A stretch of 64,000 nucleotides of DNA, taken from positions 65,908,001 to 65,972,000 of the forward strand of contig NC_045696.1 of the NCBI RefSeq assembly GCF_009834535.1. Reading direction: 5' to 3'. Positions 10,501 through 60,429 of the stretch are shown one piece after another. The notes beneath the pieces are model-generated. The model saw nothing but the letters and a program-made list of their open reading frames with translations, was not told where the DNA came from and did no database searches. The stretch is from Camelus ferus (taxonomy: Eukaryota). Position numbers and translations under genes: made by a program. How positions within the stretch are numbered: the stretch's first letter is position 1; every line of letters begins with the position of its first letter.

Positions 10501-10639
10501 TTTTACTTAAGGGCTAGCAAATTACTGGAAACTACTCACTAATCCCAAAGTTCAGCAAAGCTAAAGAGTGACTTTACTGTCATAATAGCCCAAGACAAAA
10601 AAATCATAGAAACTTGGACTATGATGATGAACTGGGAAG

Positions 10640-17400: not shown

Positions 17401-17464
17401 TTAAAAATAGTAAACCTATTTTTAAATGAATAAAAACATAAAATAAAATGAAATATGTAAAATA

Positions 17465-17790: not shown

Positions 17791-18199
17791 ATAGTGTAGA
17801 AACCTCTGCTGGTTTATATACATTATTTAGTAAAAGAAGTTTTTTTGTCAGTTGTACAACAAAATAAATTTATGTAAGCTTTTATTATGTTAATTGCTCT
17901 TATAGTAATATTTCCTTAAGGTATTACTAACACCTTAAAAATGTATATTTTTCAAAAAATAGGTAGGTTATTTCATCATTTCAGTAATCCCAAGAGCTAA
18001 GCAAAGGCAGGTACAATTTATGCTTTATGGATTTTTAAAAAATAGTTAACGTCACAGAACAAGCATGTTGTTTAGTGAAAATAAAGACTAATTCTTCTGA
18101 TTTCTTAGCTCTTGAAAAGATCCATGTTCATCAGTACAAAAATAAACGTTATTCTGCAAAAAATGCTAAAAATAGTAAATCAAATAAATAAAAACACAT

Positions 18200-20070
18200 A
18201 ACAAAATGAAAGCTATAAAATGTCTTATCAGTCATGGCTTAAGTTGGAAATGGACTAATTAGCTCCCATAAAAAGACTCATGTTTTTAAAATGGATTTTT
18301 AAAAATCCAGCTCTATGCTATTTACAAGAATCAGAGTGAAAACAAAATGATGAAAATCTGAAAGTAAATGTAATGAGAGAGGGAGAGAAGAAATAATATT
18401 AATGTCAGAAAGTGGACTTTATAGTTGAAAGCACTAAACAAGGCATGAAGTGGGCTGACACGTATTAATAAAAGATGCATTTTGTGAAGAAGATAATGCA
18501 GTCATAGACCTTCATAGCACAAACAACACAGCAGCTAAATATATGAAGAACTACATATTAGAATATTGGTAACTTGATGAAAATATAATTACGATAAGAA
18601 CCTTTAATGCATTTCTTTTGAAATTTGAGTAAATCTAAGCACTTCCTGAACATTAACTCATTTAATCTTCACCATAATAACCCTGTGAAGTGAACACAAT
18701 TATAATCTCGATGGCAACTGAGGAAAAGTACAAGAGATAAACAAATCAAGTGCTTTTTTTAGAAGTCCAAGAAAAAAATGAAAAATCCCTCATAAACTTG
18801 ATTAAGGGCAAAAGAATGGGAGTAAAACACACAAGATTAGAGATGATAAGATCTAATTGCATAAAACAATATTATATTCAATTCTGTGGCAACACATTTG
18901 AGAACCAAAAAAGACAGATGATTTTTTGGCAAAGTATATAATTACCACAACTAAATGAAAAATAAGTGGGAAATTTGTAAATGACTACTTAAAGTTGAAA
19001 AAAGTTGAAGGGTCAGGTAGGTTAACAAGTGATTTTTATCAAATATTTAAATTGTAGGTACTTAGGTATATTGAAACAAAACAGAACATATCAAAAAAAT
19101 CTACAGATAGAGATACTGAAAATAAATTTGATGAAATTTAGTGATCGTTCTAATAACACCAAATAAAATTAGAATGAAAAGAAACTACTAAATTTAATAC
19201 TTGACTATGCAAATAAAACAACACATATTGTTATAAATAGCAAAGCTTTAAAGGTATTTTATTTAAGGCCACAGACTGTATAGGGAGGCCTGCTTTTGAC
19301 ATTAGTTTTTAATATTGGCTGGTGGCATAATGAAAGCAAGAGGGTAAGGAAAACAAAACAGATTAATATTGGAAAAGAAAGAGTTTCACTCCCTGCAGTT
19401 GATATGATTGTCCCCATCCTAAGAGATTCTAGAAAAATCTATTAAAATTAATATCAGAGTTTGTACAGAGCCTGGATATAAGATATACATTAAAAAACAA
19501 TAGCTTTCTCTTTAGTTCTGAAGCATATTGAGATGGAAAGAGGAAAAAAGTCATATTCATAATAGCATACATATACAACTGAAAATACTTAGAAATTAAA
19601 GAGTGGAATAGGACCTATATAAAAATACATGTATATTTGAAGTATATATGAAATTATATATGAAGTATATATGTGATCTTATGAGGGACATAACATAGTC
19701 TGAACAAATAAAAATAGTTATACGCTGCTAGTTGAAGTGTGAAGTATTGCAGTCAATTTAAAAAGAGACATCTAGCAGCATCTCTTGAAATCATAAAACC
19801 TTTGACCCAGCAAATATTCTCCTGGAAATTTATCCCTAAGAAGTAAATTGCCACTACATAGGGATATATGCATGGGAAATTTTATTATGTAATGTTTATG
19901 GAAACGAAAATAATCTCAGGTTATGTTAAGAGAGAAATTATTAAATATATTATGTAATATTAGATAGCCAGTGTATTATTTTATAGCCAATAAAAGAAAA
20001 TCTATTAAAATTGTTCCAGTTTACTTGATTTCTACAATGTATCAGTGAATGAGAAAATAAATATTATATA
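18200..20070 (+). mobile_element. Highly decayed L1 (L1ME-type) ORF2 and 3' end fragments
   Basis: Endonuclease-like ccagctctatgctatttacaaga, mid-ORF2 gttgatatgattgtc, and 3' ctttgacccagcaa...ctggaaatttatcc. Confidence 0.6.
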
Positions 20071-20312
20071 GACAAATCTATCTTTCCATTCTTTTTTAAC
20101 ATCTGTAAAATGATGTTAAAAGGTAAAATAATGTTAAAGACAGCCCTGCATGGTATGTATACATGTATTATAAATAGACGTATTATGTGTGATTATACGG
20201 CCATGAATAGGTTACCTAAGTGGGAGATGTTATTGGGGGACAATGTCTAGGTCAGGGAGAAACAAGTGATCACTATGGCTGTATAACAACCCCAAAACTT
20301 AGTGGCTCAAAG

Positions 20313-20501
20313 TAATGATTGTCAACTGGGGGCGGTTTTGCTCTCCAAGGGACATTTTTTTGATTGGCATGACTTAAGAAGGATTTGCTACTGGCAGGAG
20401 GCCAGGGATGCTGTTAAGCATCATTTTTACGCACAGGGCAGCTCTCACAACAAAGAACTGTCCTGTCCAACACAGCAATCAGGCAAAGCTGAGAAATCCT
20501 G
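20313..20501 (+). mobile_element. MER20 (hAT-Charlie) non-autonomous DNA transposon
   Basis: caactgggggcggttttgc...gaggccagggatgctgttaagcatc...cacaacaaagaa...tgagaaatcctg; degenerate 8-bp TSD gctcaaag/gcttaaaa. Confidence 0.8.
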
Positions 20502-20884
20502 GCTTAAAAAAGAATGACGATATTTATTTGGCTCATGAATCTGCAGTTTGGTCCAGGCAGAGCTGAATGAGAATAGCTCGTTTGTGTTCTACCCAGTGTC
20601 AGGCTAGCAGGCCAGACTAAGATTGCATGAAAGCTCTCTTATCCACATGGTTTGGTTTTGATCCTGACTGTAGGCTGAGACCTGAGATTGTCAACAGGAA
20701 TGCCCATTTCATGTACCCTCTCAGTGTGGCCTGGTCTTTCTTATAACAGTGTGGTTAGGTTCCAAGAGGGAAGAGAGAGAGGGACAGAGAGAGGGAGGGA
20801 GAGAGAGAAGCCATGTCACCTTGTGATGTTAATTGGGTTGAGGCAGTCACAAAGTCCCATGTAGTTTCAGGAGGAAGGCAGACC

Positions 20885-21003
20885 GGAAAGGTAATAGCTC
20901 AATGGTGGAGCACATGCTGAGCATGCACAAGGCCCTGGGTTCAATCCCCAATAATTGCCCCCACCAAAAAAAAAAAAAAAAAAAGATTAAAAAAAACAAA
21001 AAA
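20885..21003 (+). mobile_element. tRNA-derived SINE (camelid Vic-1-like)
   Basis: A box tagctcaatgg (20895-20905), B box ggttcaatccc (20938-20948), short body and A-rich tail. Confidence 0.85.
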
Positions 21004-24080: not shown

Positions 24081-24721
24081 GTGTTTGCTGACTTAAAGGA
24101 TATGGATATTTTAAAATTCTTGAAATATATTCACATATGGTTGAATTTCATATAATTTTTTTTCTCCTGATTACTTACGTTTTATTACAAAGCATACAAT
24201 GTGTGTGTATATAGCAACAAATAACACTCCTTTCTTTTTCTCTTGCAATAGACAGACACACAAGGCAGGTAGATGGAAACCTTTATCCTTGAAAAAAAGA
24301 AGCTCGATTGTCAAGGATGCTTTATATTTGAAGTTTTAAGAGGCTTCTTAATATTTCTTTCTGAATAATATAGATTTCTTGCCCTATCACAGGTGACACT
24401 GGCCAGACACACACAATTCCAGTTTGGACAGAGCCTTCCTTGGTTCTTTTCAGATGTTGACATGAATGTGGGTAACACATTTACTTTCCTTCTTTCAATC
24501 TCACCAATCAAATAAATCCATTCTCATGGGAACAGTTGCCCCTTTATAGAAAAGTGAGGAGCGGAGAATAAGTCTTTATTTCCCAGCATCTTTGTACTTC
24601 ACTCTGTAAGTATTTCAAGGCGATGGGCTTCATTGTTTCCTCCAGGTACACGCATATGTATGTAAGCAAATATATAAGCATGCACATTTATACACATAAA
24701 GGCATATACTAAGGAATACAA

Positions 24722-25092
24722 AAGAATAATTACTAATAAACTTTTTTAAAAGATGCAAGTTCTGCGACTTGGAACTTGAGTTTTTGCCAGTTTTGTTCTA
24801 GGACAATAAACCATTTTTTAAAAGAGATAGGTCAATTTGCTTGCTTGTTTTTTGGTGACTTCTTGCCTATAAATGAAGCTATGGAAGTTGACTCTAAGTT
24901 TATTGGCTATGATTTGGTCAGGCAGTGCTAATATCTACCTGTTCCAGAGGTGGCAGGCAGCAGGAAAGCTGGTTGGATGAAGCAAAAACAGATTATCAGC
25001 ACTGCCTTCATCACGGTCCTCTTTTTCTAAAGTCACAGAGGATTTCGTAGTTTTACTTTATTGCTGGCATGGTCCTTTACTCGTATTCCAAT
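24722..25092 (+). repeat. Local direct duplication, copy 1 (upstream of GMNC)
   Basis: Aligns by eye with 39922-40294: 5 substitutions and one 2-nt T-run difference over 371 bp. Confidence 0.95.
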
Positions 25093-27899
25093 GTTTCTGT
25101 TCATTCATTCAAATGCCACTAGCAGTGCTAATTTCATAGCAATTATAATTCCATTTTTCTCAGATTGGTTTTGAATGTATAAATGCTTCCACTAGCTAGA
25201 GGTTGACATTATGCATTCACTTTGTGAAAAAGAAATGTGGAAAGCAGAGCGTGACTAAAGCCACCCACATTATTACAAAGTTCAAGTACGTTTCTTCAAT
25301 TTGATTGTAAATAAGATGATTTTGACACAAATTATTAAGTCAGTAAGAATTCAGTTCACATTTTATGGATTTTTATGGGTAACAAAAATATGGAATTATA
25401 ACTTCACTGTAGCTTAACGTTTTATATCTAAATATATTTCTTTATCTTCTTTTCATGAAAGATGTCACATTATTTTAGATTCTCTATTTCGAGGACTAGA
25501 AGGAATCTGGTCCTGGTTGTCCTGTTTTGCTATTACGCCCTAAACTAAGCTTTTTGAAGAAACCAGGTAGTGGTGTCCTTATTTCTGTTATCTCTGGGAT
25601 AAAATTAGATGCCATGGTCCATACCAATGCACTTTTCAGGTCTTTAACGCCTAGTCAGCAATTCATCCACTAACTTCTAGATCAAAAATCCTTAAGAGAG
25701 ATTTCAGGAGCAATGAAGGCACTGAAGCCTAGTTTATGAAAATACTAGTGCTCCTGAGGCAGAAATTCATTTTATTTCAAACTAGAGTTGGACTAGCATA
25801 CTTCTAATGCATAGTAATCATAATAACTCACTATCCATTATTTTCTAAGGTTGGAGGAAAGAGGAGTGGGGTTTTGTTTGTTTGTGTTGTTTGGGTGTCT
25901 GCATTTCTAATCTTTCTGTTAATGCAAATAACTTTCACTGTTTATCTGATTTTACAGTAGCATTGAGATTATTTTATTCCAGTTTGGCCAGAGAGATTAT
26001 CACAGAGCAGAGCTTCCCAGCCAGTGCACCAAAGCACAATGAATTAAATCCCTGGGAGACAGTGATGTCCCCTGTCCTCATGGGGGCCTGACAGGGCCTG
26101 GGAGAAATGGGAACTCCCTTGCCTACCAACAACCAAAATAAGCATCAACTCTTTGTTCCGGCTTGCCCACAAATATCATTGTCTTAAGCACCATATTATG
26201 AGAAAAGTCAGAAAAAGCAATGCTACAGAGGATGAAAGAGGTTTGCTTCACTGTAGACAGTGAATACAGATTGTCATCCATTTTTTAGTTATCCTTTAAA
26301 TATGAAATAAATTGTTGATAGTCGAAAGATCTGTGAATATCATTATAGCATATGATGCTTCTTAATATAATGCAATCCAATACAACTGAAAAAATAAGCA
26401 ATCACTTAATGAGTCAATACATAAAGGTCTAAAGCTGGCTATAAAGCTACTGGAATAAACTCTGACCGAAACATCCAATAAAATAATATCATAAATGTCC
26501 ATCCCCCTGCCCACTCAGTTCCGTATAGCACTAATTTGAGTCAGGCTTGCATCAAACATTTCACTCTATAATTTGTCCAAGGCCTTTCTCTTTTCTGGCT
26601 AATAACCTGATATTAACAGTTGACTTTCTTTTGTATACCTTTTGTTCATGTATAAATAATTTGTACCAGGGCACAACTTCCTGCATATGTAATGGTTATT
26701 AGAAGCTATGCTGACATGTAGGTGGTGGGTATTAGGCAAGACTGTCCACAGCAACATGATTGATTTCTGCACATCATTCTAGAGAAGTGATGTTCAAAAC
26801 TAAGACTATATATGCCATGGTTCTCCACGTATGCTGAAATAAAATATGCAAATGTTAAATCTCGCACTGTAAATCATCTACTGCATTGAATTTTCTCTTA
26901 AGGTTTTGCTTTCTATTTTTCTGTTTTAACCTACCTGTAAAAGCAGACATAGTATTTTTTTTATTCTCTGGAGACTTAGCTGTAGAAGCTATAAGGAGAG
27001 GCTATGCTTGTAAGGAGAATTTTTAATTGTTCTTTTATTATATATGCTACTGAATTCATTAATGAGGTAATCAAATAAAGTGTCCTCCCGGGGTGAAATA
27101 AAAGAACATTCCATATGCCAATCTATTTATCACCTTGGGCCACCTCTGCTTGCACTCTCCACTTTTCTGTCTGCAGACTTGGTTTGTGTGCAGGTCAAAT
27201 TACCTCCTAATTTGTTATATCTTTGCCCTGGCAGGAGGCAGTGCCCTGATTCAACAATTGGGCTGTTATTAGCCACCTTCCTTTTAACACCATCCCTTCA
27301 GCCACAATATAAAAGGCAGTTTTTTGCTGATCTTATTGTCTATAGAAGAAGAAAACATCTATATGGGTTGTGATCACTAAAGAAGGTTCACCTTCTTTCA
27401 TACGTGTGAATAAAAAACAGCCAAAGGTGTTTACATTATTGCTTAATTGACTGATGCACTTTTCAAAAAAATTATCATCAAACGAACAAACAAAAAATAA
27501 GACTTACACCTAAGCAGTATATCTTAAATAAAAATATAAGCTTAAGTCAGACCATACGAACATAGAAATCTTTCTAATAGTTTCTGATTTCAGGAAAGCT
27601 TTATCTTCTGATTTATGTTAAATTGTCAAGAGCTCTTCACTGTTTAAAGATTCTCTGTCACCATATACTTCTCTCTCTTACTAAGCTAAAATAGTTAATG
27701 ATTTATGAAATATTTGTATGCTGAAAGTCCATCAAAAACTTTAAAAATTTTTTTCTAGCCCTCAGAGAAAACCTCTGGAGTTTTACAGATGTAGCCTGTA
27801 TTTTCAATTATTTTTAACAATCAAGCCACAACAGCAAAGAAAGAGTCCTCTACGCTAACAATCCTATCAGCTACTTGTCATGACTTAGGCAGTGAACTA

Positions 27900-28080
27900 G
27901 GAGTTTTCAAGCATTAGTGGTCAGCTCATTAAAACCTCTCAAGTAGGTATTTCTTTCTTCATTTACGAGAGGAGCTAACTGAGGATTTGGAGACCATGAT
28001 ACAGCCTCAGGTGACTCAGTCTTAGAAGGCAGAGCAGGAATTTGTACCCAGTATTTTTGAATCCAAAGCCCTTGCCCTTT
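27900..28080 (-). mobile_element. MIR SINE
   Basis: ctcattaaaacctctc...gtaggtatt...aactgagg...ggcagagcaggaatttgtacccag. Confidence 0.7.
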
Positions 28081-28707
28081 ATTGTCATCCCGTACTTGCT
28101 GAGCTGCCCATTTTGTGGTATTATTAGAGTCTAGAAATTGTATCCTCGAGAGACTTATATGTCTCATTTATGACTGTTTCTAAAAACAAAACATCATCCT
28201 CTTCCTTTTTCTTGCCTCTTGTGCCCACTGTAAAACTGTTTAGGATTTTCTTTGCCCAGAGCAAGAGCATTGGTTCTTAAGACCTAAATGGGTTTTGATC
28301 TATTTCCCTATCATCTCAGGGTCGTCCTGCCAGGGCATCCATGTTCCTTGAGCAGCGAGAGCAGAGAGGGGACCACTCTCACGTTACTGACAGAAATCAG
28401 TCCTGTGGAGTGACCCAGACAGTGTCTTCCGAGGAGTGATCCCCATACCTGGTACCATTCACTTACCAATGCTTGTGAACAAACAGTATCAGAACAGAAG
28501 AAAAGGACTTTACTGAGTCTGGCACCTTCCTTCTCTTCCTCTTCCACTTCTTTCTTAATTTTGGACACAGAGCTTAATGAGCATCTGCTGTGTGTTAGTC
28601 ACCGTGGATGGTAAATACAATACAAAGCAGAATGAATAAAGGTCAAACCCGGTTTGGAGAAAGAACTATGCAAACCAAAATCAGTTTTCTTAATTCCTTT
28701 ACGATGC

Positions 28708-29075
28708 CTGTACTGATTTGCTAGAGCTTAAGACTAAATGGTTTAAACAACAGAAATCTATTTTTTTCACAATTCTAAAGGCTGCAAGTCCAAGATCAGG
28801 GCATCAGTGGAGTTATTGGCTTCTCCTGGGACCTTTCTCCTTGACTGGCAAACGGCTGCCTTCTCCCTGTGTCCCCCTGTGGCCATTTCTCTGTGCATAC
28901 CATCCCTGGTGTCTCTGCCTCTTCTTAGGAGGACACTACTCATAAGATTAGAGCACCACCCTTCTGAACTCTTAACCTTCTTTACCTCCTTAGAGGCTCT
29001 ATCTTCAAAAGCAGTCACACCGAAGGTTAGAGATTTAACATATTTAAAATTGGGGGGAATATAGTTCCCATAAAA
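28708..29075. mobile_element. ERVL-MaLR solo LTR (MLT1A/B/C-like)
   Basis: ttaaacaacagaaatctatt...cacaattctaaaggctgcaagtccaagatcagg...ggctgccttctccctgtgtcc...gcagtcacac...ggttagagatttaacatat. Confidence 0.85.
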
Positions 29076-29557
29076 TGCCCATTACTTAAATGGCTATAAT
29101 GTGCAATGGAAAGAAGAGTACTCTTCAAAGAGAGTAGTCAAAAACTGTAATTTTGGTAGATAGTATGGATGCTGGAGCCAGAGGTTCAAATCTCAAGTCT
29201 GCCACTTCCTGACTGTGAATATTGGTCATTTCTTAACTTCAGTGCTTCATTCACCACCTTTTAAAACAGGGGCAATAAGAGTACAGACCTCCTGGGTTAT
29301 TGCCAGTTGAAATCAGAGTTGGCTGCTAGTGGTAGATGAATGGTTTTAAAGATGGTATTGCTCCTTTTTTCCCTCTGGATATAACACCGTAGAAACCATG
29401 AGAATAAAATGCAAGGGGAAAGATGACAGATATAAAACACCTTGAGAAGTTTTAACACACTAAATTTTCTTAATTATGTTGATTTATTCTGTATAATAGT
29501 AGCTGTGAAGATAGGACGCACACAGGACAGACACATGAGATTCTTAAATTTGTAGCT

Positions 29558-29672
29558 TAATTCATTCTTTATTGAACACCCATTCTATGTTAGAAATTGT
29601 TCCAGGCACTTTGGAGACAGCAGTGAACAAAACGGACAGAAACCGCTATTCTCCTGAAGCTTACATTCTAGA
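29558..29672 (-). mobile_element. L2 3' end
   Basis: attcattc...ttattgaacacc...ccaggcactttggagacagcagtgaacaaaac...gaagcttacattctag. Confidence 0.75.
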
Positions 29673-29889
29673 ATGGATGTAGATCACCTCCACACTCAAC
29701 ACCCACTTCAGACGTTGGAGAAAATGAGACATATCCAATAGAAGGCGGCGGGGGGGCCAGTCAATCAGCAACATCACACAGCCAGATGAGATTTATTAAG
29801 TGGCCAGAGAACACACAGGAGGAGTATTAACTCGGGTTGGACGGGCTCCCCAAGTGCTGCTCTGATTCCTGAGAGGCAGATTTGGGCTT

Positions 29890-30300
29890 TTCCGGTCCCA
29901 GCGCCTCGGAGCCGACCTGTGCGCCCCGCCCTGCCCGGCGGCTGCGCGCCTCGCGCCGGCGTGAGCCGGGTGCGCCCCGTCGGGCCGGGATCCGCGGTCA
30001 CTGCGGGACCCGATGCGCGGCGCCCTGGGGACGCGCGGCGAGCCGGCACCGGCGCGGGTTTTGAAGCAGCGCTGCGCACCCGGAGGCGGAGCGTCGCGAG
30101 CCCCGAGCCACCGCCCGGGAACCCGACCCGCTGGTCCTAGGTCCCGGGCGGCGGTCGCCGTGTGTGCCAGTGACTTTGGCTTTGGCTGGGTGTCTCCTAA
30201 CCCACGTCACCAGCTTGACATCCTCGCACCAAATCAGAGGGCGGCGCTCGCCGGGAGCCCCGGGCGTCACCGGGAGCTCCCGCAGATTAGAACTCGCCTC
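29890..30300. promoter_or_regulatory. CpG island / GMNC promoter
   Basis: Abrupt, very GC- and CpG-rich block in an otherwise AT-rich, CpG-depleted window, directly upstream of the GMNC ATG exon. Confidence 0.9.
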
Positions 30301-30322
30301 TCCTAGCTCCTCCCCTCAGTCC

Positions 30323-30373
30323 CATTTAAAGCTCCCACCCGCTTTCCGGGAAAATTAAGAGTGGGCTCAGATT
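30323..30373 (+). promoter_or_regulatory. Candidate core promoter: TATA-like CATTTAAAG, STAT/GAS site TTCCGGGAA (30344-30352), Inr-like CTCAGATT
   Basis: Motif matches 25-75 bp upstream of the ATG; the TSS itself cannot be observed. Confidence 0.45.
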
Positions 30374-30398
30374 CTGCAGCGCCTTCTTCCACTGCAAG

Positions 30399-30401
30399 AT
30401 G
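30399..30401 (+). CDS. GMNC: GMNC coding exon 1 (ATG only)
   Basis: gcaagATG|gtaagt: ATG with A at -3, directly followed by a consensus donor, at the 3' edge of the CpG island; in frame with exon 2. Confidence 0.88.
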
Positions 30402-33400
30402 GTAAGTGGGAGCTGGCGTTAGCTAGTCCGCTGGCGAAACCGAGGGGCTCTGAGAGCTAGTCAGCTTTGCCTTTAGAATTTCTTCTACCTTGGAAACAAA
30501 ATTTCTCTGCTACCTGCCAATTAAAACCGGTCTTCTTTGTGCCCCACCTCCCTTTTCTTCTCCCCTATCTTCTGGCTTTCTCTCTCTCTCTCTTTCTCTA
30601 TCTCCCTCTCATCCTTCTGCCCTCTCTGTAATTTCTACTCCCTGCACTCTCTCCCAGCTTTCCCTTTACACCTGCACTCACAATTTTCATTCCACCTCTT
30701 CCTCTAGATTATGCACATATTTGCAAAAACTTGAACTTGAGTCTAGGGGTATTTGGGGTTTGTTTTCGTCTCAGGTGTCAATTGCATAAGAGCTCAGCTC
30801 TGATTCCAATAATAACCTCAGGGAAAGAGCCTACAAACATGCTTTTAGAATAAAAGAAAATGCACTTGATAAACTTTTGGCTGAGTTTCTCTGGTCTGCA
30901 CTGCCCACGCTGGACTTGCTTCAAGACAGGACTTTTTCAAAACTTAACTTACCGGGAACGTTAACAAAGTGTGACTTAATTGACTTAACATTTTTTCCCT
31001 CTTATTTGTTTTCTGTTTATGTTATGCCCAAGAAAGTTCTCAAGTCAACAAAAGACTTGCTGTGGTCAAAAAGGGTTTGTCCAAAGCTGGGCTCTGCTGA
31101 AATGAATGGCTTTTACCTGATTAAACATTGACAAATAATTAGGAATGGGCTGTTGTACAAATTAACTCAGGGAGGCTGCATACCTGCCCCTAACTGGACA
31201 TTTGGAAAGACTGTGTGTTTGAGGTTTGAGGAGTCAGGGGCAGGAGGGTGTTCACTGGCTCAGAACACAGTAGGGAATGCATGCCAGGCAGTTAGTACTG
31301 GCAAGATAACTTTGGAAGGGCATTGAGACCTGGTGATGGAGAGATCTAGATAGAGCTTGCTGTCTCTGCTAACTGACCTATTTCAGCTCTTTGATTGATT
31401 ATATGTTTAGTTGGAGTGACTTTACACTCCTGTGATTAGAGTTAGGAGCAAAATATATTTAGTTATCTCATATATGTATATGTGTGTGCATATATATGTG
31501 TATGTGTGTATGTATATATATATACCTCAAACTATTCAGATCACCATAGGATCGAACAGCACTGAAAACCAGAGGAAAAGAGGAAGAAGGAAGAGAGGAA
31601 TGGGACAGGTTTATAGCTCAGACACTTAGAAACTAAAATGAGGAGTTTAGATTATATGTCATCTTCTGTTCGTTTCAGCCTTAGCATCCTGCGTTCTTTG
31701 TCTTTCAAGGTTATTCGAAATATAATTAAGACATTTGCTAGAAAGAGTCAAATCGTTCTTACGTGTTTCATTCATTAAGTAGAATTCCTTTTACTTAGAT
31801 CTTGGGTAGCCTGTTAGATGACTCAGACATGGCAACAGAGAATACTCCTGGATAGTTACAAATGTGGCCCAGCTAATACTAGCCTTTTCTTTGCTGAGTG
31901 GACCTAAGGGAAGTACTGGGTAAACCAAGGACCTGATTCTCTTTCAGTAATTATGTTTGGACCACTCAACATTAATCTGGGATCTATACTTAACACCTTT
32001 ATTGTTTTTATATATTTTCTGCTTCTTTCTCCCACTCTTTTTCCCCTCCAAATCCCCATCACCCCATCTCTTGGGACCCCCCCATCCTGCATACTGAATT
32101 TCACAGAACACCGTTCTGCCTTGCCAAGACCAGTACTTTGTAGGAGGCCAGAGCTATAATTGCCCGTATTCCGCTACAACGTCAGAATCTAGTGTTGACG
32201 TTTCCACGGAGACTTGGGTCTCTTTCTGGGCTGCTGGTCTCCTGGACAACAGAGAGCCCCAACAAGCACCACAGGCACAGGGTAAGTTCTGCTCTTCTGC
32301 TTTTCTGGTGGATCTGAAGCCCTTTTCCAGTACTCATAGTCGCAAAGCATCATGGGCTGAAACTCTGTAGAAGAAGGTATGATAAGAAAGCCCCAAACTC
32401 CTGTATGTTGTATCCTAAATAACCTGCTTTTTTGTAATTGCCAAATAGTGACCATAGGATTCTTCCCCTTAACCACTGGACAATATGTATTTCTTCCTCT
32501 ACTTTATAGTTCTTGGAGATTTCCAACTCACTGAGAAAGTTTGGGTCTGGGTCAAAGTTTTATAAACAATGCTAGTGGGATGCTTTTGGAATCAAGATAC
32601 CAGTTGGAGCTTTTCTTTTGGAATTTAGGGAAGTTTCCCTGGGTATGAGAGAAAGAAGCAAAGAGAAATACTAACTTAATCTTTTATTTCATAAAGGAAA
32701 TTCTATGAATAATTTCTTATAAGTGGGAAAAATGATTTCGTTTTTGCCTAAAGAAGACTTCAGCAACTTTGGAGGGAAGTGTAACTTTGATGGGAAATTA
32801 CACATTAATTTTGCCCTGGGGCTTAGTAAACAGGGTTTATAAACAGTAAAGGAGTTTTTGTCTTATCACTCAAGTTTCTAGAAAAACTCTAAGACATTTC
32901 AGAATTCAGTATCTGTGCTGTCAGTTCTGCAATATGATTTTATTGAATTGAAGAAAAGACAAAAACAAAAAGCCCCCAAATATTGAAACACACTTACATG
33001 TCACGAAGGAAGTTGTTCAATTGTAGCTTCCTACCACAAGCAACAGAACAAGCAGAATACCCAAAATTATAAAGCCAAGGAGTATATAAAATTGTATTCC
33101 TGTTTTCCTTGCCCATCATTCCACTTTAATCAAAAATATGTCAGTCATATTTCAGTTTAGGTAGAGGAGGGCAAGCATCAGAACTGTACTAGATGAAGAA
33201 AGGAAAGATTAGAAAATGAGATAGAAACCTGAAAAACATAGTGGAATTGCAATGTAAGCCCAGTTGGGGGCAGGGCCAGTAAACAATTGCTTGACTAATA
33301 ATGTACATGGGACAGGGACAGTCTTTATAAATTTAGCAAGCAGGAATACATATATTAGGAAGGAACATGACCTCTTGACTTCTAAAAATTCACCTCTATA

Positions 33401-36400
33401 GCCACTTTGGCATATAGTCTATAAATATTTGTCTTTCGTAGCATGCTTGCCCCTTCTGAAAGCTTTAAATATGTTATTTTCCCATGTGGAGGCAATGGCT
33501 AATTTTAGAAAGGTAATTGAACTGATTACCTTTCTGAAATTCTTCACTGAGTTTTTTATTACACAGACACTGCACATTTGTTTTCTCAGTTATCCATTTG
33601 GTGTTTTCACATAGAATCATCCAGTGACTCGAATTTCCCTGTTCCTAATTCATGTTCATGGGAAGAGGCTCAGCTTTCCTCTCAGCTCTACAGAAACAAG
33701 CAGGTATGTGTAGATAATCAGAACATGGAGACCAACCATGTGCCAGGCAGTTCATTCTCAACATCATCCCTGAGTGTTACATCGCTTCTTTCCCCGTGTT
33801 CAATGCATTAACTTTCAGTTGAGAACCAAAGAGGATATTTGTCCACAGAGAAATCAAAGTTAGGTCATCAATGTGACAGCAAATAACAGCAACCAAGCCA
33901 GCAACAACCAAAACCCCTGAGGAAGACCTGCAATCAAGCCCTGACCTTACACACGTTAGTGGTATGACCTCTTAAATCCTCCTTTTCCTCATCTAAGAGA
34001 TGGAGATATTTGTGCTGCCCACCTCAGAGGGTTGGTGAAAAGATCAAATGATATAATGAGTGTGACAGTATTTTTCAACTATAAGCAGCTCATCACTTGG
34101 AAAAGGGATGGTGATTATAAAAGTTCTTGCAGAGGTTGCTTCATTTTCCAGATTTTGTTTGTTGTTACTTCCAAGAGAGTGATTTAATCCAGTGGACGTA
34201 CAAACAGATTGATCGGTGGCTAAGGGAGGCCAACCCACATCTTTTTGTCTCTCTCTCTCTCTCTTTTTTTTTTAACATGCAAGGAAGGGGTTCAACGAAA
34301 CCTGTCTAAACACTGTGTTCTATATTTAAACAGTTGCACGCAGCTCATTTTCCTACATACCTTCCCAATTCCCTTGTGGTTACAATTTTAAAAGTCATAT
34401 AATATCTGCAAATACTTTACAATGAATAAAACTGAACAATCAGGTGGTAGGTGGGTGTAGATTGAACTTAGGCCTCTGAGGACCAGGGCTACCTGAGATT
34501 GAGTTCATAAAACAAACAGAATAATAATCAAGTTTAAGCATTTATGGATCAGTGGCATTATTATAAGGTTACAGAGTCAACATAGTGGAGCAGCCTTCAC
34601 CATTGTTTGCTTTTTGCAGCTCCAAGATACTCTGGTGCAGAAAGAAGAAGAACTTGCTAGGTTACACGAAGAGAATAATCATCTCAGACAATACCTGAAT
34701 TCTGCTTTAGTTAAATGTCTTGAGGAAAAGGCCAAGGTATGTGACTATCCCCTTTACAAGGACAGAGCAGTGATTTGCAAAAGAAGGCCATTTGGGTAAA
34801 ACTCCTTGATTAAGTGTAAGAGGTGTATTAAACAATGTGTCTTGAAATGCATGAATAGGCGGGTGAATTTTTTTGAAGGAAATTTAGCACTTTCACGAGA
34901 ATTTCTATGTATCATTTCTCTGAAGTATCTAGATGGTAGATTTCAGCCATATATTACAAAAGAAGTTGCTTAAGAATCAAATACCAATCAAGGCGATTGC
35001 TGAGACAACAGAGGTTAATCAAAAGGTAGAGTTAGACGGATGGAACCTTGATGTGAGAATTAGATCTGAGACACGCTGGGTTCTTCTAATTACCTGTTTG
35101 ACTTTGGGTAAGTCACTCTTTCACTTGAGGCCTCAGTTACTTCATTTGTAAATGAATGAGCTAAAAGATCTTTTTAGAATCTTTCGAGCTCTGAAATGTT
35201 ATCAATATGGCTGAAGCCCAGATCTCTTGACTAGCAATTAGATCTAGCCAAATATTTATCTTTTAATGAACTTTTTTTTCTTACTCTTTTAAAATGAACT
35301 GTTCCTAACTCAAGGATAAATACTGGGAGTTTGAGATTTGTAGATACTGACTAATATATATAAAATAGATAAATAAGTTTGTACTGTGTAGCACAGGGAA
35401 CTATATTCAATATCTTGTAGTAGCTTATGGTGAAAAAGAATATGAAAATGAGTGTATGTATATTCATGTATGACTGAAACATTTTGCCATACACCAGAAA
35501 TTGACACATTATAAACCGACTATATCTCAATTAAAAAAAAAAAAAAGGATAAATACCTTGCCCACAGTCTTTGTTTTTTTTTTTCTTTTTGGTTCTTCCT
35601 CTCTTTGGGTTTTATATTTTGTTGTCTGTTTGCTATTCTATTATCATTATTGTTTCTATTATCAGTATTTACCTTACTTCTAGGCAGGCTGCTCATTTAT
35701 CTAAATCAATCATGTTTCCTACGGCTTTTACCATATATAACAATTCCTTCAGAATTCAGTCAGCTTTGTTTAAAAAAGGAGCACATCTTATAATCATTAG
35801 CCTGGGTTCCTATCTCCAGCCACCATTCTATAAAAAAAAAGAAAAAAGACAGTTATTAAATTAGTAAGTGATATTAATTAGGCAAATTTGTCTCTCGTTC
35901 TCAATTTTGCAAGCTTTAGAATGATATGATACATATAACATGGGAATGCTAAGATAGTTAATAAAATTAGAGGAAGTGATGATACATGGCATTTCAATTA
36001 GTGGTTCTATCTGGATTCAGATGGCTTAGTTTTAAACCTAGGCTGCGTGATCCTTAGCAAGTTGCTAATATGCCTGTGCCTCAGTTTCCTCATTAAACTG
36101 GATTTTAATAGTATCTACATAAAATGAGATAGTGCATTCAACCAGTCCTCAATAAATGATAGTTGCTATTATTGCCATTATAATGATCATCATCATTACT
36201 TCCCTGAATTGAAATTTTATAGACATCTTTTAATCCTTTCAGCTTTTACATGACTAGCAAACTAATATGAATTGGAATTTCTAGGTGATAACTTGTCATC
36301 ATAGATTTTAATTTAGAAACAAGTTAATCCAGTCGCTTTTGCATCTTTGTGGAAAAAAATAGAAATTTAATCAAATTGCCTGAGGAATGAAGGTGATTAG

Positions 36401-37097
36401 TCACTATCTGACAACAGTGAAGAAAATGATGTAGGTTGATTATCTGACTGTGTATTTTCAAATATTACCTCTCCAGAAATTGCTGTCATCAGAGGAGTTC
36501 TCCAGAGCACGTGGAAACTTCAGAAAGGGGAAGAGGAAACCCAGGGAGCAAAGATATTTTCCTCCTGAGATTCCCCATCATAAAAATGCCAAGAGAAACC
36601 TCTCTAGTGAATTTGCTAACTGTGAAGAACAGCCGGGGCCCCCTGTGGATCCCTGGGTTCTTCGAACTCTGGGGTTAAAAGATCTCAACACCATTGATGA
36701 CACCTCATCAGCTAACTACAGTGCCCTCTCGTCCCATCCAGCACGGACCACCAGTGCGTTCCCCCAGTTTCTGGATGATGCGGTTGGTTATCACAATGCC
36801 CCCGGGCAAGATCTGCCCATTGACTGTGGAGGTGACAGAACGGCCCCTTCACACAGCACTTCCAGCCACGGGGGAGAGTTTCACTTCCCTTCTCAGCTTT
36901 CCAGTCCCCCAGGAGGGCTGCAGACTCCTCCTTACTATGCTTCTGATGTGTTGCGCAATAAGACGGAGGTGGCCTTTTCCACATCCCTGAGCCCTCACTG
37001 TAATGTGAAAACTCACTCCTTCCACCAGGGACAAGCCTTTGTTCGTCGAGATGAAGAGGGAGGCTGGAAGTTTACCTGGGTCCCTAAGCAGTCTTAA
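30399..37097 (+). CDS. GMNC: GMNC / GEMC1 (geminin coiled-coil domain-containing protein 1), spliced CDS join(30399..30401,32107..32281,33615..33703,34620..34736,36477..37097), 334 aa
   Basis: Exons of 3+175+89+117+621 = 1005 nt join in frame at GT-AG introns. They give MNTVLPCQDQYFVGGQSYNCPYS...LYRNKQLQDTLVQKEEELARLHEENNHLRQYLNS...KTHSFHQGQAFVRRDEEGGWKFTWVPKQS*, recognisable as GEMC1 (geminin-type coiled coil plus C-terminal TIRT domain). Confidence 0.97.
32107..32281 (+). CDS. GMNC: GMNC coding exon 2 (NTVLPCQDQYFVGG...EPQQAPQAQ)
   Basis: Acceptor tttcacag|AAC and donor CAGG|gtaagt; open frame matching the GEMC1 N-terminus; phase-1 end. Confidence 0.95.
33615..33703 (+). CDS. GMNC: GMNC coding exon 3 (ESSSDSNFPVPNSCSWEEAQLSSQLYRNKQ)
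   Basis: Acceptor ttttcacatag|AA and donor CAG|gtatgt; its 89 nt restore the frame after exon 2. Confidence 0.95.
33940..34085 (+). mobile_element. MIR SINE (intron 3)
   Basis: ttttcctcatctaagagatggagata...cacctcagagggttggtgaaaagatcaaatga. Confidence 0.65.
34620..34736 (+). CDS. GMNC: GMNC coding exon 4, geminin-like coiled coil (LQDTLVQKEEELARLHEENNHLRQYLNSALVKCLEEKAK)
   Basis: Acceptor tttttgcag|CTC and donor AAG|gtatgt; heptad-patterned peptide typical of the geminin family. Confidence 0.97.
35324..35546 (+). mobile_element. 5'-truncated, relatively young L1 3' end in GMNC intron 4, with poly(A) and 12-bp TSD
   Basis: tgggagtttgagatttgtagatact...agcacagggaactatattcaatatcttg...ctcaatt(A)n, flanked by aaggataaatac at 35312-35323 and 35545-35556. 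Confidence 0.9.
36020..36170 (+). mobile_element. MIR SINE (intron 4)
   Basis: gctgcgtgatccttagcaagtt...ctgtgcctcagtttcctcat...ctcaataaatg. Confidence 0.7.
36477..37097 (+). CDS. GMNC: GMNC last coding exon (basic RKGKRK patch, KRNL cyclin-docking RxL motif, C-terminal TIRT E2F4/5-DP1-binding region)
   Basis: Acceptor ctctccag|AAA; 206 codons to TAA at 37095-37097; longest ORF in the window. Confidence 0.97.
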   Translation, partial: KLLSSEEFSRARGNFRKGKRKPREQRYFPPEIPHHKNAKRNLSSEFANCEEQPGPPVDPWVLRTLGLKDLNTIDDTSSANYSALSSHPARTTSAFPQFLDDAVGYHNAPGQDLPIDCGGDRTAPSHSTSSHGGEFHFPSQLSSPPGGLQTPPYYASDVLRNKTEVAFSTSLSPHCNVKTHSFHQGQAFVRRDEEGGWKFTWVPKQS

Positions 37098-37974
37098 TGA
37101 CCCCTCTTCTATCACAAAGGACTGCCATGAACTCTGTTTACAAAGACCTCTCTTGCACTTGAACCCGACTCTGTGGAAAATGCAAGCTCTTGCCCAGACT
37201 GTCTCCTGCCACTTGAAATGTCACTCTCAATTACCCACTTCCATCTGCAGGGAATGGCTTCCAAGAATCCATAATGAAACATGCCTGCTCTTCTTTCACC
37301 TAAATTTGACTTGTTTACACACCCACACCTGCTGTTGACGTCCTCCCTCTGCCCTATACTTGAAAAGGTATTTTTCCAATTGCCTGAATATTCCTCTGAG
37401 AGTTACATATGCTGTTCCAATTATAACACACCTAACAGCTTTTCTCTTCTCATCAAGCCGTTTAAATGTTCACAGCCGTCACCTTTTCACTTTTATTCCT
37501 CTCCTGCTCCTCTTCATTTCTAAAAACTGCCTTTGAAATGAGCGTTATAATTGCTCCAAGTACCTGTTATTGAGTGTTCAAATAACCGAGGGTGGGGTGG
37601 AAGCAAGTGTCTCTGCCCAGTCCCATTCCTGAAGACACAGTGCAGTTGTGAGTAATGCTTTGTGTAGGGCAGTTCGGTAAATTGAGTGTCCCATGGTGGA
37701 GTTGACAAAAAAATCTCTTCAAGCAGCTGTAACTCTACTGATAAGCAACACCACTGATAAATTGAAAGATAGAAGAGAATTAAAATTACTCCAAAATGCC
37801 TGCATAGTATATTAGCTTCTCTAGGCACTTGGCATTGTGTCGGCAACCAACATGGATCTAACAAAAACATTTCTGAGATGCTTGTGGTAACAGGATAAGT
37901 CACGATCCAAAACTACTTAGATGCTGATAACCTTCTACTCCTCCAAGTATAATCTAGCCTAGCTCTGACACTGT

Positions 37975-38112
37975 CTCATTCATTCAGTCAATCATGTCTT
38001 CATTTATCAACCCACCCAAAATATTTGTAGAACATCAGTGGTGTACCAGGCATTGTGCTATGGGCTGGTAATAAAAAGTGAACAAGTCAGACACTGTGGC
38101 CACACTCATGGG
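37975..38112 (-). mobile_element. L2 3' end within the probable 3' UTR
   Basis: cattcattcagtc...gtaccaggcattgtgctatgggctgg...gtgaacaagtcagac...ctcatgg. Confidence 0.6.
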
Positions 38113-39921
38113 AGACCCACTCATCTGCCTTGACCTTGAGAAAGCTGGTGTGAAGTTTCAGTTTTCCCAGCTGCAGAGTACAGATGGTGGACTAGGTAAT
38201 CACTAACAGTCTATAAATTGAGACAGGGCCCCAACAGCTTTGCTCCAATGCTGCCACCCCAGGTCACTGTTCTCTACTTTTTGATTGGCATTGCAGATAT
38301 GTTGGGTGAAATTTATGTACAGTTTTTGAAACGTGTGAGCCATGTATAGTTAACACTAGAAACCATTACTCTGATCACAGTATTCTTTTTCTGGTATGAG
38401 CCTATTTTGTGGGTTAATTCAGTCTTCGTGAGAACATGCACCTAAAAAATAGAGACCTTAATTTTTAAATAAGAGTGCATAGATTTAATGGAAATATTGA
38501 TGTCAAAGATTTCTGTTCCTAAATTTTTTAAAGAAGTATTCTTTTTGCTCATTCTAATTCTCCCTCTTTCCAATTCCCCAAGCTCTCTAACCTTCCCAGA
38601 ATAATTTACATATCAAAGATGTGCACATGTTTTTTATTTTTTTGGACCAAACTTCAGTTGATAAATCCACTGTGTTGAACCCCTTCCCCATTTTTCTGTT
38701 TTTCACCTTTCAGTAAGTCATCTTGTACAATCAATGCCTCAGAGCATGAGTGTGCTATTTGGAATTCTTTGTAACTAAGACATGTCTTTTGTTGCTGTTT
38801 GGTGTTTGCTTTCTTCTGGTGATGTGAGTAAATAATCTATTCCATAAAGTTTTGTTATCACTCAGATTTCTTTGTAATCCATGAAGGGCAATTAAATATG
38901 TTAATTATCTTCATGTCTTAGAAAGAGCTAGAACACTTTCTATTTTCTAAAAACAAAATTTTTAAAAAGTGTCTGTATTCTAGTATCTGTTCCCCTGGTA
39001 GAGGCGAAATGTATCTCTCTTTAATAACACATTTAAAAACTAAAACTGACTATACTTTAATATTAAGAATCAAAAAAGCAACATAAATATTTTGAAAGCC
39101 TAAATGATCATGCTGTAACACAAAATTGATTAGTCAACAAATAATTATTTTGCATTTTTATGTGCTTCACTGGGGGTTAGGTACTATGAGGAAATACCTG
39201 GGCTTAACAGAATGCATTTGATACATAAAACAAAGCCACATTAAATGTAATAGCTTTTAAATGAAACCTGGTCTCAGCCTGGTTTAAAGAAATTACAGCA
39301 TATTTGTGGTAAATTATGATAACATGCTCTGGCCTATATGGGAGAAAACTACACCAGATTATCACAATCTCATCTAACAGGAATTCGATGTTCTCTTGAA
39401 TTATGTATAGAAAATTATTTTGTTGATGTTTGAAAAATTAGAACTTTCTCTCACCTGAGTATATGTTCTAACTTTTATGGTTTTACTATGTCTCTCTAGT
39501 AAACCACAGTTAATATTTTACTAATATAAAGTGAAAAATAAAAGTTAAACAGCTCTTTTGTGATTTCAATGAATATTTTTATATTGTGCATAACATTTTC
39601 CAAGAATGGATTTTCCTCTCCTAGGTTTTAACCGTAATCTTTTGATTTGCACCTCTTTTGTATGATATATATGGCCAGACGAATATTTTCAGCATTTAGG
39701 ACTCAATGGTTCTTTCCTTTACCCAGGATATATTAACGAGGCTTTCAGATGTTAAGTGGCCTGAGAGGTCAAGTGTTTTGCGTAAACAGCACTCTCTTAC
39801 CTAACCTCCCATAAAAATTAAAACTCAGTATCAATTTTTAAAACTTGATGACATTTCCAATGTCCTCTGATCATTTGAAAATGAATCATACTTGTGTCTC
39901 ACTAGTATCTGGAATACATAT

Positions 39922-40294
39922 AAGAATAATTACTAGTAAACTTTTTTAAAAGATGCAAGTTCTGCGACTTGGAACTTGAGTTTTTGCCAGTTTTGTTCTA
40001 GGACAATAAACCATTTTTTTTAAAAGAGATAGGTCAATTTGCTTGCTTGTTTTTTGGTGACTTCTTGCCTATAAATGAAGCTATGGAAGTTGACTCTAAG
40101 TTTATTGGCTATGATTTGGTCAGGCAGTGCTAATATCTACCTGTTCCAGAGGTGGCAGGCAGCAGGAAAGCTGGTTGGATGAAGCAAAAACAGATTATCA
40201 GCACTGTCTTCATCACAGTCCTCTTTTTCTAAAGTCACAGAGGATTTTGTAGTTTTACTTTATTGCTGGCATGGTCCTTTACTCATATTCCAAT
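39922..40294 (+). repeat. Local direct duplication, copy 2 (in or near the GMNC 3' UTR)
   Basis: Near-identical to 24722-25092, same orientation, offset 15,200-15,202 bp. Confidence 0.95.
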
Positions 40295-40869
40295 TGGGAA
40301 ACCTTACTTATGAAAGTGACATTTAATGAATGGGGTTGTTTAATACTGCAGTGATGCTAAACTACAATTTTGAAAATTTTGAAGAAAAGAAACTATGTGA
40401 ATCAATGGAAAGAATTGCTCTACTTGATCTATTTCAAGAAAACAATTTAAAAAAAAAACTGTGACAAATGAACAACCAATCTACGAAAGTATAGGGTTAA
40501 TACATCTGTGATAATTTTTTGATAAATTTGCTTCTTGCCTATAAAGTTAAGATACACAATTTACATTTGTTTCAGTTTACCAAAAGAGTCACATAAGGTA
40601 AATATTAAATGCACCATTAATTTTTTTTACTAAACCAAATAAAATTGATTTATAAGCTGCAAATATATATTTCTTAACATATTTGTCATATTTTATCTAC
40701 ATTTTTTGTTACATGAACATAACTAGACATCCAGTTATAATTCTTACATTGGATATTCTATAAATGTAAAATATAATTTAACACTTAATATTTTAAATGA
40801 TTATGATTTGTCTATGATTTAAAATATTTCTAATTGTATATGAGTCAATTTTGTAATGAATTTATATCT

Positions 40870-41280: not shown

Positions 41281-44200
41281 TAATTATTAGGAGTGGATTC
41301 TGGAACGGTGTTAAGATAGTCCTCACCACACAAAAGTGTGACAGCAGCCAGGATGAGACAGGCAATATGAGCTTGCAGAGCAGCAAGCTATATCCCATGA
41401 GATACTGTCTAGATTTGTGACATTCTCCTTACCCTTCACCTTGTAACACCACCCTCCCAAATGAATAAAGCCTCAGTTATATGCTCCAGACTGGTCTCAG
41501 TTATACCATAGGAGATTATGAAAGTATTTTGGTGCCTGCACATGAAAATTGTGAGCAGATTTTCCCTGAGGCCACTATACTAGCCATGCACTTATCCCTA
41601 AGGGGAAGATTAATATCAAGAGAAATGGTTTGAGACTTGCATGTCAGGCCAATAACCCATTGTTACACGGGTTACCAGTAATGGATAATCTGGATTTTAT
41701 TTAGTCTCCTTGCAGGGATTTTCTTTTTTCTTGGCGAGAAATACCCCTAAACCTCACTCACTCTAAGTAACCCTTGAAGATGGATGTCGCAAGTACAGGT
41801 TATTAGAAATATCTTGATTCCCATTTTACAGATGAGAAAACTGGTTCTAAATGTTTTCTGGATCACATTGCAGTAAGTAGTTGAGACCCAAGGCACTGAC
41901 TTTACACCTAGTTCTTTTTTTTGTTATAAAACACAATGATGATTTTTGGGACCAGTAAATGTATTTGCAGTCTGAAGTCTGTTACAGACTCTTACAAGCC
42001 TCAGAGCTAGAGGGGGTTTTAAATCTTTGCTTACATTCATCAGATGGCTATTCTGGGGTCCACACGCTCTTAATCCCATCATTGCTAAAAGGGATTGTTC
42101 AAAAAAGACCTAATTCATCCTCCATCATTTCAAAAAAAAGGAAGTATACGAATTGAAAACTACTGTAGAAATTTGGGGTAACGAGACTAGGATGGAAAAG
42201 TTAGCCAACTCACAGTGAAAATATTAATATGCTTTATTAATGTTATTAATATTAATAACAAAAGAAAGCTAAATTAAAAGGGAAATAAATCTCTCTTCTG
42301 CTGCTAGTTCAAAAGCCTGAAGTAGCAGTTTATAAACAATGCTCATGAAGCCTCTTTCTCCCTCTCTTTATACAGGAAATCAACAGATTTCATACCTGCT
42401 GAAGTGATGTCATTATTCCCATTCCTGTCAATCATTTTAAGTATAATTCTAAGGGACAGTAAAATAGTTGAGGAAGTGTATTTATAACACTGAGCCCACT
42501 TCTTCTAACACACAGAAAGCATTCTGCTCCCTCACTTTGGAAATCAGGGGTTAAATGATACTTTTTCAAAGGCACAGCAGATTTTTTTTTTCTCGTCTCT
42601 TTTCCACATTTATAATCTGAAATAATAAGGCATAAAAACGGGTGTTTCAAGGTAATTTCTTATTTCAAGAGAGTCCTTAGTACTCAATGGGTGGTCCCTC
42701 TGGGATGAGGCCCACGATCTCAGATCCACAATCAGGAGAATTCTAAAGGTAATGTTCCCTCAGGGTCTTCTGGTTGCTCTGAAGCTGAGAGCAGGAGCAG
42801 CTCTTTAATGAGTATGAAGTAAGAAGTCAGAACCCCTTGCTACAATCAGGCAAAAGGCCAAGACACACCCTCCTTTCATTTTGGTCTCCTGAGATTTGCC
42901 ACCTCACAGGAGCCAGAGAGTCATTCTTCGTCCATCCGTAACACACAGGGGAATCAATGCGGGTGGAACCTGCAAGCGGCATCTGCGCAGTGCAGTCCAC
43001 GGCCCCATCCACTGGTAGAGCTGTGTGTACATCCTGGGACTCCCAGCCTCCTTTGGGAGTGGAGCACCGTATTGCCAGAGGCTTGGCCTTGCCTTCTTTT
43101 GATTTTAAGGATCATAAGTAGTCATCCTAGCCCATCCTCTTGTCCTCACACAAAATTTCTACAATAGTTTTAATTAATATGCTTTCTTTTGAAATGATCA
43201 AGGATGGATTAGGTTTCTTATGAGCTATCCTGTTACCAAAAAAGGAAGAAAAAAGGCTGGACACCCAGAGTAGCCCTCTGATAGATGTAAATATAATCCC
43301 TCCGATGTCCTTGGAATGGGCTTCTAGAAGAAGACTGGAATGGGCAATTATTAGCATTTATTCACATCAGTAGATCAGAATACTGACAAAAGAATCACAT
43401 TTCCCTTCCCTACAGGTCAGTGACATTATGGAAGAAGAAAGGACTCTCGTCAGCAAATTGAGCTTCTTCACTTTTAACTGTGACACCTCAGGAATTAATT
43501 GAGACTTCCTCAACCTTGGGGTGTTCGCCTATAAAATGGAGGTAATATTTGCTCTATCTCATAATTTGTGAGATAATCTCCTAATTTTTAAGGACCATGT
43601 GTAAGTTAAGAGTCTCATTTATCACAATCTTCACACAGAGTAAACGTCCATTTAATTTAATTCTTGAGTGAAAAATCACTTCTTAAAACTAGTTATTCAT
43701 ATTTCTGTTGACTCAAATCAATAAATGCTCTTTGTTTTCCTACCATGCTCAAAGTATAGTTTTATGTTCTAGGGACTGTGGCCCATGTCTTAAAAGAGTT
43801 TACAAGTTGGTGAGTGGAGAGAAACTAGGAAAGGATGCATTGAAGACCCGATGAGACATCCGTTAGACATAAAGTTAGAATTGCTTCCATAGATGCAAAG
43901 GTAGGAGGGATGGAAGAGAGAAGAAAAACTCAACAGGGCGAAGTGTGAGGCCTGTTCAAGGAATGTTTATTGGTACAGGTAGTTTTAGGACAGATTCTTT
44001 TTTTTAATAAAATAATCCATTCTTGAAATCCAGCAGAAATTTTTGTGCAATGAGACATACTACAGACTCTGCAAATATATTATTAGTTATAGAAAAGAGT
44101 TGCCAAATACAGAACACCCCAAAAGTGAAGGTGATAACTTAGAAATGTTTTTTGCATCCTTAAAACAATTCAGTCATCATCTTCCATGACTAGTTACATC

Positions 44201-60425: not shown

Positions 60426-60429
60426 CTGT

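Follow-up and report, generated by a model that had tools for sequence, protein, structure and literature searches.

A young 371-bp direct duplication on either side of the GMNC coding sequence in Camelus ferus, probably a product of DNA-templated repair

The 64,000-nucleotide stretch of Camelus ferus DNA analysed here (NCBI RefSeq assembly GCF_009834535.1, contig NC_045696.1, positions 65,908,001 to 65,972,000 of the forward strand; hereafter the window, numbered from its first base) contains the cilia-regulator gene GMNC and, on either side of its coding sequence (CDS), two near-identical copies of a 371-bp unit in the same orientation. Alignment places copy 1 at 24722-25092 and copy 2 at 39922-40294, with starts 15,200 bp apart, and reproduces what an initial annotation of the window had described: five substitutions plus a 2-nt difference in a T run (T6 at 24814, T8 at 40014). 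The partial match that it noted to the left of both copies is GGAATACA (plus strand, 24713-24720 and 39911-39918), which extends the homology to about 380 bp in total (24713-25092 and 39911-40294). Self-BLAST aligns the copies at 97.4% over 384 columns with an E-value given as 0.0, so their resemblance is not due to chance, and they are the single pair of at least 50 bp and at least 88% identity in the whole window. Similarity ends abruptly at both unit ends without diverged shoulders, the flanks are unique on all four sides, and the window contains no N. At 384 bp, the unit is too short to be a segmental duplication, which is defined by >1 kb at >90% identity (PMC2671141).

The five substitutions (copy 1/copy 2: 24736 A/39936 G, 25005 C/40207 T, 25015 G/40217 A, 25046 C/40248 T, and 25083 G/40285 A) give a divergence of 1.35% and are all transitions. 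Three of them are CpG in copy 1 and TpG or CpA in copy 2; four CpGs are kept in copy 1 and one in copy 2. Transitions only, with three at CpG, are the pattern of genuine divergence, which speaks against an assembly error; single-strand deaminase mutagenesis was ruled out as their source, since the changes fall on both strands. A 20-mer from the unit had no match in viral contigs and one in genome contigs, where the match did not extend past its 20 bases. An Rfam scan of 20-45 kb gave no matches, ARAGORN reported no genes, and none of 10 chance open reading frames across or near the junctions was found by exact look-up.

Between the copies lie a CpG island at 29800-30400, taken as the GMNC promoter region (GC 0.60-0.81 and observed/expected CpG 0.81-1.22 in 200-nt bins starting at 29800-30200), and the complete GMNC CDS on the plus strand (exons at 30399-30401, 32107-32281, 33615-33703, 34620-34736, and 36477-37097, with GT/AG splice sites). 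The five exons join into an intact frame of 334 amino acids with no internal stop; the first consists of the ATG alone, directly 5' of a splice donor. The exon 4 peptide matches the coiled coil of PDB 5c9n chain A (E 5.5e-19), and among the 120 of 235 homologues listed, the last exon retrieves named GMNC proteins across vertebrates. Whale proteins are 91.0% identical, that of pig 89.8%, and that of sheep 86.5%, which is compatible with a camelid; no camelid protein is present in that listing or among the listed members of five clusters. A search with the C-terminal peptide gave no matches in prokaryote genome contigs and, in metagenome contigs, one distant locus (61% over 23 residues, 70% GC) that is dissimilar to the unit; this locus (L001, 4242-4307; E 1e-5 among candidates) could be a chance or distant motif match. 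From the end of copy 1 it is about 4.7 kb to the CpG island and 5.3 kb to the GMNC ATG, and copy 2 starts 2.8 kb past the stop codon. The description of the duplication as bracketing the entire gene thus holds for the CpG island and the whole CDS, but "entire" is uncertain in view of a poly(A)-like signal in copy 2, which may be GMNC's own poly(A) site instead of a bracket.

The ends of the unit carry neither of the usual marks of retrotransposition, as the initial annotation had also reported. A search of the flanks for a target-site duplication (TSD) found direct matches of at most 4 nt around copy 1 and at most 5 nt around copy 2, neither placed as a TSD would be, and neither copy has a poly(A) or poly(T) tail of at least 5 nt at its ends. 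On the left, A (copy 1) or TAT (copy 2) stands between GGAATACA and the core, an arrangement that is compatible with an 8-nt microhomology followed by filler, yet GGAATACA could belong to the copied segment itself and mark its true start. When GGAATACA is included, the unit ends form a 7-bp inverted repeat (plus strand; GGAATAC at 24713-24719 and GTATTCC at 25083-25089, the first base of the right arm being A in copy 2 at 40285); at least seven such matches occur in 0.37% of 9,086 control segments. The absence of a TSD and the arms not being flush with the unit ends (3 nt of common sequence continue beyond GTATTCC) argue against reading this repeat as a transposon signature. Modelled as a single strand of DNA, copy 1 has a better fold than 99 of 100 shuffles (z -2.58), with a predicted terminal helix of probability 0.73 and 0.92 on its two strands, and end pairing of this strength is seen in two of 146 control segments. 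The G-to-A change at 40285 is predicted to abolish the helix in copy 2 (0.03-0.05), whereas copy 2 with its three CpGs modelled back, together with 6-300 nt of its own flank, would regain it at 0.18-0.73; in the context of copy 1, the helix drops to 0-0.15 once the flank reaches at least 150 nt. This observation is post hoc and concerns a single event. The inverted repeat may show the point at which a new strand folded up and came away from its template, thereby setting where copying stopped, or it may have arisen by coincidence.

The content of the unit bears on which copy was the donor. An AATAAA at 40005-40010 (plus strand; copied at 24805), followed by a GU/U-rich stretch at about 40030-40070, is a candidate distal GMNC poly(A) signal. 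By a simple home-made count of GU content chosen after looking at the sequence, this site scores 13 and ranks fifth of 87 plus-strand AATAAA sites; none of 105 minus-strand sites reaches 13, two of 192 sites on both strands outside the unit do so, and about 1% of 380-nt plus-strand segments contain a site with such a score. Copy 1 has a second AATAAA at 24735-24740 (AGTAAA in copy 2) with a GU-rich region downstream (score 14, rank 2 of 87), and an alternative candidate GMNC signal lies 5' of copy 2 at 39537-39542 (plus strand; score 12, rank 6 of 87). The presence of AATAAA with a GU-rich element suggests that the unit originally belonged to the 3' end of GMNC, with copy 2 as the donor. Unit positions 40061-40075 are also echoed exactly over 15 nt at 40531-40545, 237 bp after copy 2, a length reached in 14 of 607 controls, which points weakly in the same direction; the best echo beside copy 1, at 11 nt, was dismissed, being reached by 70 of the 607. 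The 15-nt echo has more loose similarity on its left and may be what is left of an earlier local duplication. Amongst published repair-mediated duplications, 3' untranslated regions (UTRs) served as donors in 11 cases and as acceptors in two (PMC2671141). Taken as a whole, copy 2 is the likelier donor, by roughly 3 to 1.

The age of the event can be estimated from the five substitutions in 371 bp, which would correspond to 4.8 million years (Myr) at 1.4e-9 substitutions per site per year (i.e., 7e-9 per generation with 5-year generations; PMC7331169) or 3.1 Myr at 2.2e-9 (PMC2671141), with a Poisson 95% range of 1.0-11.2 Myr. An age of about 3-5 Myr is thus suggested, so that the word "recent" in the initial annotation is apt in the sense of a young duplication, though not of a new event. 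The estimate falls below the split of the camelid tribes about 16.3 Myr ago (PMC12337305), and the other camelid tribe should therefore be without one of the copies.

The reading that we favour, at a probability of roughly 55%, is that copy 1 is a DNA-templated repair duplication of copy 2 and most likely neutral. We infer that a germ-line double-strand break about 5 kb 5' of GMNC would have been repaired imperfectly when a resected end that finished at or close to GGAATACA paired with the identical 8-mer by the GMNC 3' end 15 kb off, on the sister chromatid, the homologue, or the same molecule. About 370 nt would then have been copied across the poly(A)-signal region before the new strand was released, perhaps with help from base pairing between its two complementary 7-bp ends, and joined to the other break end. 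The expected outcome is a same-orientation copy that lacks a TSD and a poly(A) tail, and both copies would afterwards have drifted for about 3-5 Myr, copy 2 chiefly by CpG decay. A templated insertion by break repair or template switching, as the initial annotation had proposed, fits each feature tested and belongs to a common class already described, known as repair-mediated duplications (RDs), in which nearby chromosomal DNA is captured through SDSA-type repair (synthesis-dependent strand annealing; Pace, Sen, Batzer and Feschotte 2009, PMC2671141). The length of 380 bp, the absence of a tail, and the possible 8-nt microhomology with a 1-3 nt mismatch at the left match the breakpoints reported there, and thereby support repair.

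Comparison with known systems places the duplication closest to the RDs. Of 1,136 human candidates, 824 lie within 5 kb of their donor, 58 on the same chromosome beyond 5 kb, and 254 on other chromosomes; their junctions have microhomology of 2-9 nt, filler of 1-68 nt, or a deletion, and proximal copies are up to 619 bp long, with 202 proximal RDs in cow within transposon DNA alone and 192 RDs in dog (PMC2671141). The GMNC unit resembles them (PMC2671141) in its size (within 50-619 bp), its non-tandem position (>50 bp from the donor) on the same chromosome, its lack of poly(A), its possible microhomology and filler, and its probable source, 3' UTRs being among RD donors. It differs from proximal RDs in its spacing (15.2 kb, against a 5-kb cut-off and a mean of 1.2 kb; PMC2671141), for which reason it is not filed in the proximal set but only in the distant same-chromosome group, although it appears to work like a proximal RD despite this spacing. 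Unlike RDs within transposon DNA, its acceptor is not in a recognised transposon, so the direction of copying is not directly readable; joining the flanks and comparing them with the rest of the window gave no match to any repeat. A terminal inverted repeat is not mentioned for RDs in the available portions of PMC2671141. Class 2 templated-sequence insertion polymorphisms (TSIPs; Onozawa and Aplan 2016, PMC5110952) likewise lack a TSD and a poly(A) tract and have sizes of 73-414 bp that would include the GMNC unit, and their junctions of the end-joining type may have a counterpart in the left junction here, but their donors are distant whereas the donor here is local, and the 1.35% divergence suggests an old, probably fixed event, unlike those polymorphic insertions. 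Class 1 TSIPs and L1 retrocopies have a TSD of at least 5 bp, whereas the 4- and 5-nt flank matches here are not placed as one, and they have a poly(A) tail 10-30 nt after the signal, whereas the AATAAA here lies about 290 nt before a tail-less end. Compared with a miniature inverted-repeat transposable element, the unit has terminal inverted repeats of 7 bp only, with common sequence continuing 3 nt past the right arm, and it has no TSD. The "doublets" of Thomas et al. (via PMC2671141) are similarly short, two-copy, nearby, and near-identical, but are duplicons of <100 bp as opposed to the ~380 bp found here. Insertions by synthesis-dependent MMEJ (end joining mediated by microhomology) with polymerase theta (PMC7407515) resemble the GMNC case in that copying begins at short repeats and hairpins or loops are involved; they differ in using 1-4 bp repeats and a template flanking the break, compared with a 7-bp inverted repeat and 380 nt copied from 15 kb off. 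On this comparison, the GMNC duplication is most likely an ordinary member of a well-described kind; what is new here is the AATAAA with its GU-rich element and the terminal inverted repeat, the only features worth follow-up.

Several points weigh against this interpretation. The junctions and the direction of copying are both reconstructed from the two copies themselves, with no empty orthologous site and no orthologous mammalian DNA seen in the contigs searched. On the left, the microhomology is made unclean by A in one copy facing TAT in the other, and a third GGAATACA, with a 12-nt match to the start of copy 2, lies at 33343-33354, nearer to copy 1 than copy 2 is. The 15.2-kb spacing is beyond the 5-kb class, and only 58 of the 1,136 human candidates lie farther apart on the same chromosome; the authors put the share of true RDs among distant cases at 41% and hold that such cases allow no confident assignment to repair (PMC2671141). 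As evidence for direction, the poly(A) score and the echo are both post hoc and weak. At 268 bp, the substitution-free core exceeds its expected length (P 0.009; 0.02-0.06 under 10- to 50-fold CpG weighting), a hint of gene conversion and of a greater age, and the loss of three of four CpGs in one copy, high for 3-5 Myr, could also mean an older event.

Other explanations can be offered. The same repair mechanism may have run in reverse, with copy 1 as the original and copy 2 pasted at the GMNC 3' end, where it would have supplied GMNC with a new candidate poly(A) signal before losing CpGs in methylated DNA. The ancestral-looking CpG state of copy 1 at three sites would favour this direction, as would the GC content of the unit (36-37%), which is nearer to the 1-kb flanks of copy 1 (31.5 and 35.6%) than to those of copy 2 (30.9 and 27.4%). 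However, three CpG losses in one copy would have a P of 0.25 under either direction, and both the AATAAA element and the echo of 15 nt suggest that copy 2 is native; CATAT, which is repeated inside both copy 2 ends and was considered as a TSD, is at chance level (1,077 of 9,086 controls, 12%), and we consider the reversal unlikely while giving it appreciable weight. Rather less credence is due to an RNA-templated patch (a class 2 templated-sequence insertion by endonuclease-independent L1 reverse transcription), in which nascent or long-3'-UTR GMNC RNA would have been copied into a break near its site of synthesis. Copy 2 may lie at a transcript end, Gemc1 is expressed in mouse testis (bioRxiv 10.1101/258418), and experimental insertions of 73-414 bp are enriched in transcribed sequence and suppressed by reverse transcriptase inhibitors (PMC5110952), but the RNA donors mapped there were in distant rather than nearby regions. 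In addition, the unit has no tail and no TSD, and copy 2 shows no sign of a structured RNA (its RNA fold is unremarkable, z -0.80). Because the unit continues through its own AATAAA, only unprocessed or read-through RNA could have been the template; should the signal at 40005 be in use, about 260 nt of the unit would fall beyond the point of cleavage, so that mature mRNA could not have been the template.

A more elaborate version of the repair scheme, to which we give small credence as a whole, would have the fold of the donor itself set the ends of the copy: the new strand would close into a 380-nt stem-loop via its 7-8-bp complementary ends and leave the template, the copied piece would be a GMNC poly(A)/termination cassette, and the two sense-orientation AATAAA and GU-rich elements of copy 1 would form an upstream terminator, derived from the gene's own 3' end, that now ends read-through before the promoter. 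It is slightly less plausible still that the two copies represent a dispersed repeat of low copy number, or a non-autonomous DNA element bounded by terminal inverted repeats of 7-8 bp. Such an element would account for the terminal inverted repeat and its rarity in controls, but there is no TSD at either copy, common sequence runs past the right arm, and just two copies are present in 64 kb; mammalian DNA transposons this young are known only from bats. An older duplication with a core homogenised by ectopic gene conversion, and hence a true age above 3-5 Myr, seems very improbable. Differences located at both ends of the substitution-free core and the high CpG loss speak for it; the sharp ends of similarity without diverged shoulders speak against it, and the position of three of the four CpGs within the last 80 bp accounts for part of the clustering. 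Least probable of all is an assembly artefact in which one haplotype of a single locus was placed twice. False duplications are usually longer and adjacent, whereas here the four flanks are unique, no N is present, and the 1.35% divergence has the transition and CpG pattern noted above.

Other repeats in the window include an old inverted duplication 1.7 kb past copy 2 (42031-42195 and 43132-43290; 73.5% over 166 columns, with arms about 0.9 kb apart) and 76%-identical copies at 35314-35545, in GMNC intron 4, and 49093-49325, each with an A-rich tail end, which resemble L1 3' ends. Long runs of strand-skewed composition at about 7000-21000 and 58000-64000 are as expected of long L1 segments, for which they are candidates. 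The motif CACTGCC is found 13 times in the whole window, with 11 occurrences on the minus strand; shuffles predict 3.87, and none of 100 shuffles reaches 13.

The consequences that the initial annotation attached to the duplication fared less well than its description. Physical proximity of the two gene ends is not borne out, given that copy 1 lies 4.7 kb before the CpG island rather than at the promoter and that the donors of short duplications tend to be close by whether or not a gene is involved (PMC2671141). Gene looping is likewise without specific support, since copy 1 sits away from the promoter and neither copy has a CTCF-like site close to it; the one match in the window to the CTCF consensus that we assumed, with one mismatch, is at 33260, and a CTCF-anchored loop between the copies was rejected. 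Duplication of a regulatory element also finds no support in the sequence, where the only candidate is the poly(A)-like signal and not an enhancer. A 7-nt motif presumed to be a miR-34/449 seed match is present in copy 1 (25000-25006) and broken by the C/T difference in copy 2 (40202-40208); were copy 2 part of the UTR, the difference could amount to the loss of a site, which is only a lead. In mouse, Gmnc is repressed via two miR-34/449 sites in its 3' UTR, and two mouse Gmnc 3'-UTR primers mapped unconvincingly to the window (best 15/20 and 14/18, outside the 3' region; PMC13684506). The main texts of the literature surveyed on GMNC in camel, on Gemc1 UTRs and polyadenylation, and on GMNC UTR reporters make no mention of the duplication or of a poly(A) position. 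As for unequal recombination, the perfect tracts between the copies measure 14, 77, 191, 9, 30, 36, and 9 bp, and the longest, at 191 bp, is marginal relative to the minima for efficient recombination (132-232 bp for mouse cells, with an estimate of 337-456 bp for human; PMC1352149, PMC3758752), so that the copies are hardly a meaningful substrate and a 15.2-kb deletion, while possible, is expected to be rare. Such a deletion would remove the GMNC promoter and CDS and thus create a null allele; Gemc1-null male mice are infertile (bioRxiv 10.1101/258418). Duplicated regulatory sites and ectopic recombination had already been named as possible outcomes by the authors who described RDs (PMC2671141).

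As it stands, the duplication is of little importance, as mammalian genomes hold hundreds of such copies and some flank compact genes by chance. If it is true that inverted repeats at the ends are common in such duplications, this would explain what brings synthesis to a stop in ectopic repair, and if copy 1 is an active terminator, it would be a clean example of a repair scar gaining a regulatory role. For the camelids themselves, the duplication could act as a presence/absence marker among lineages.

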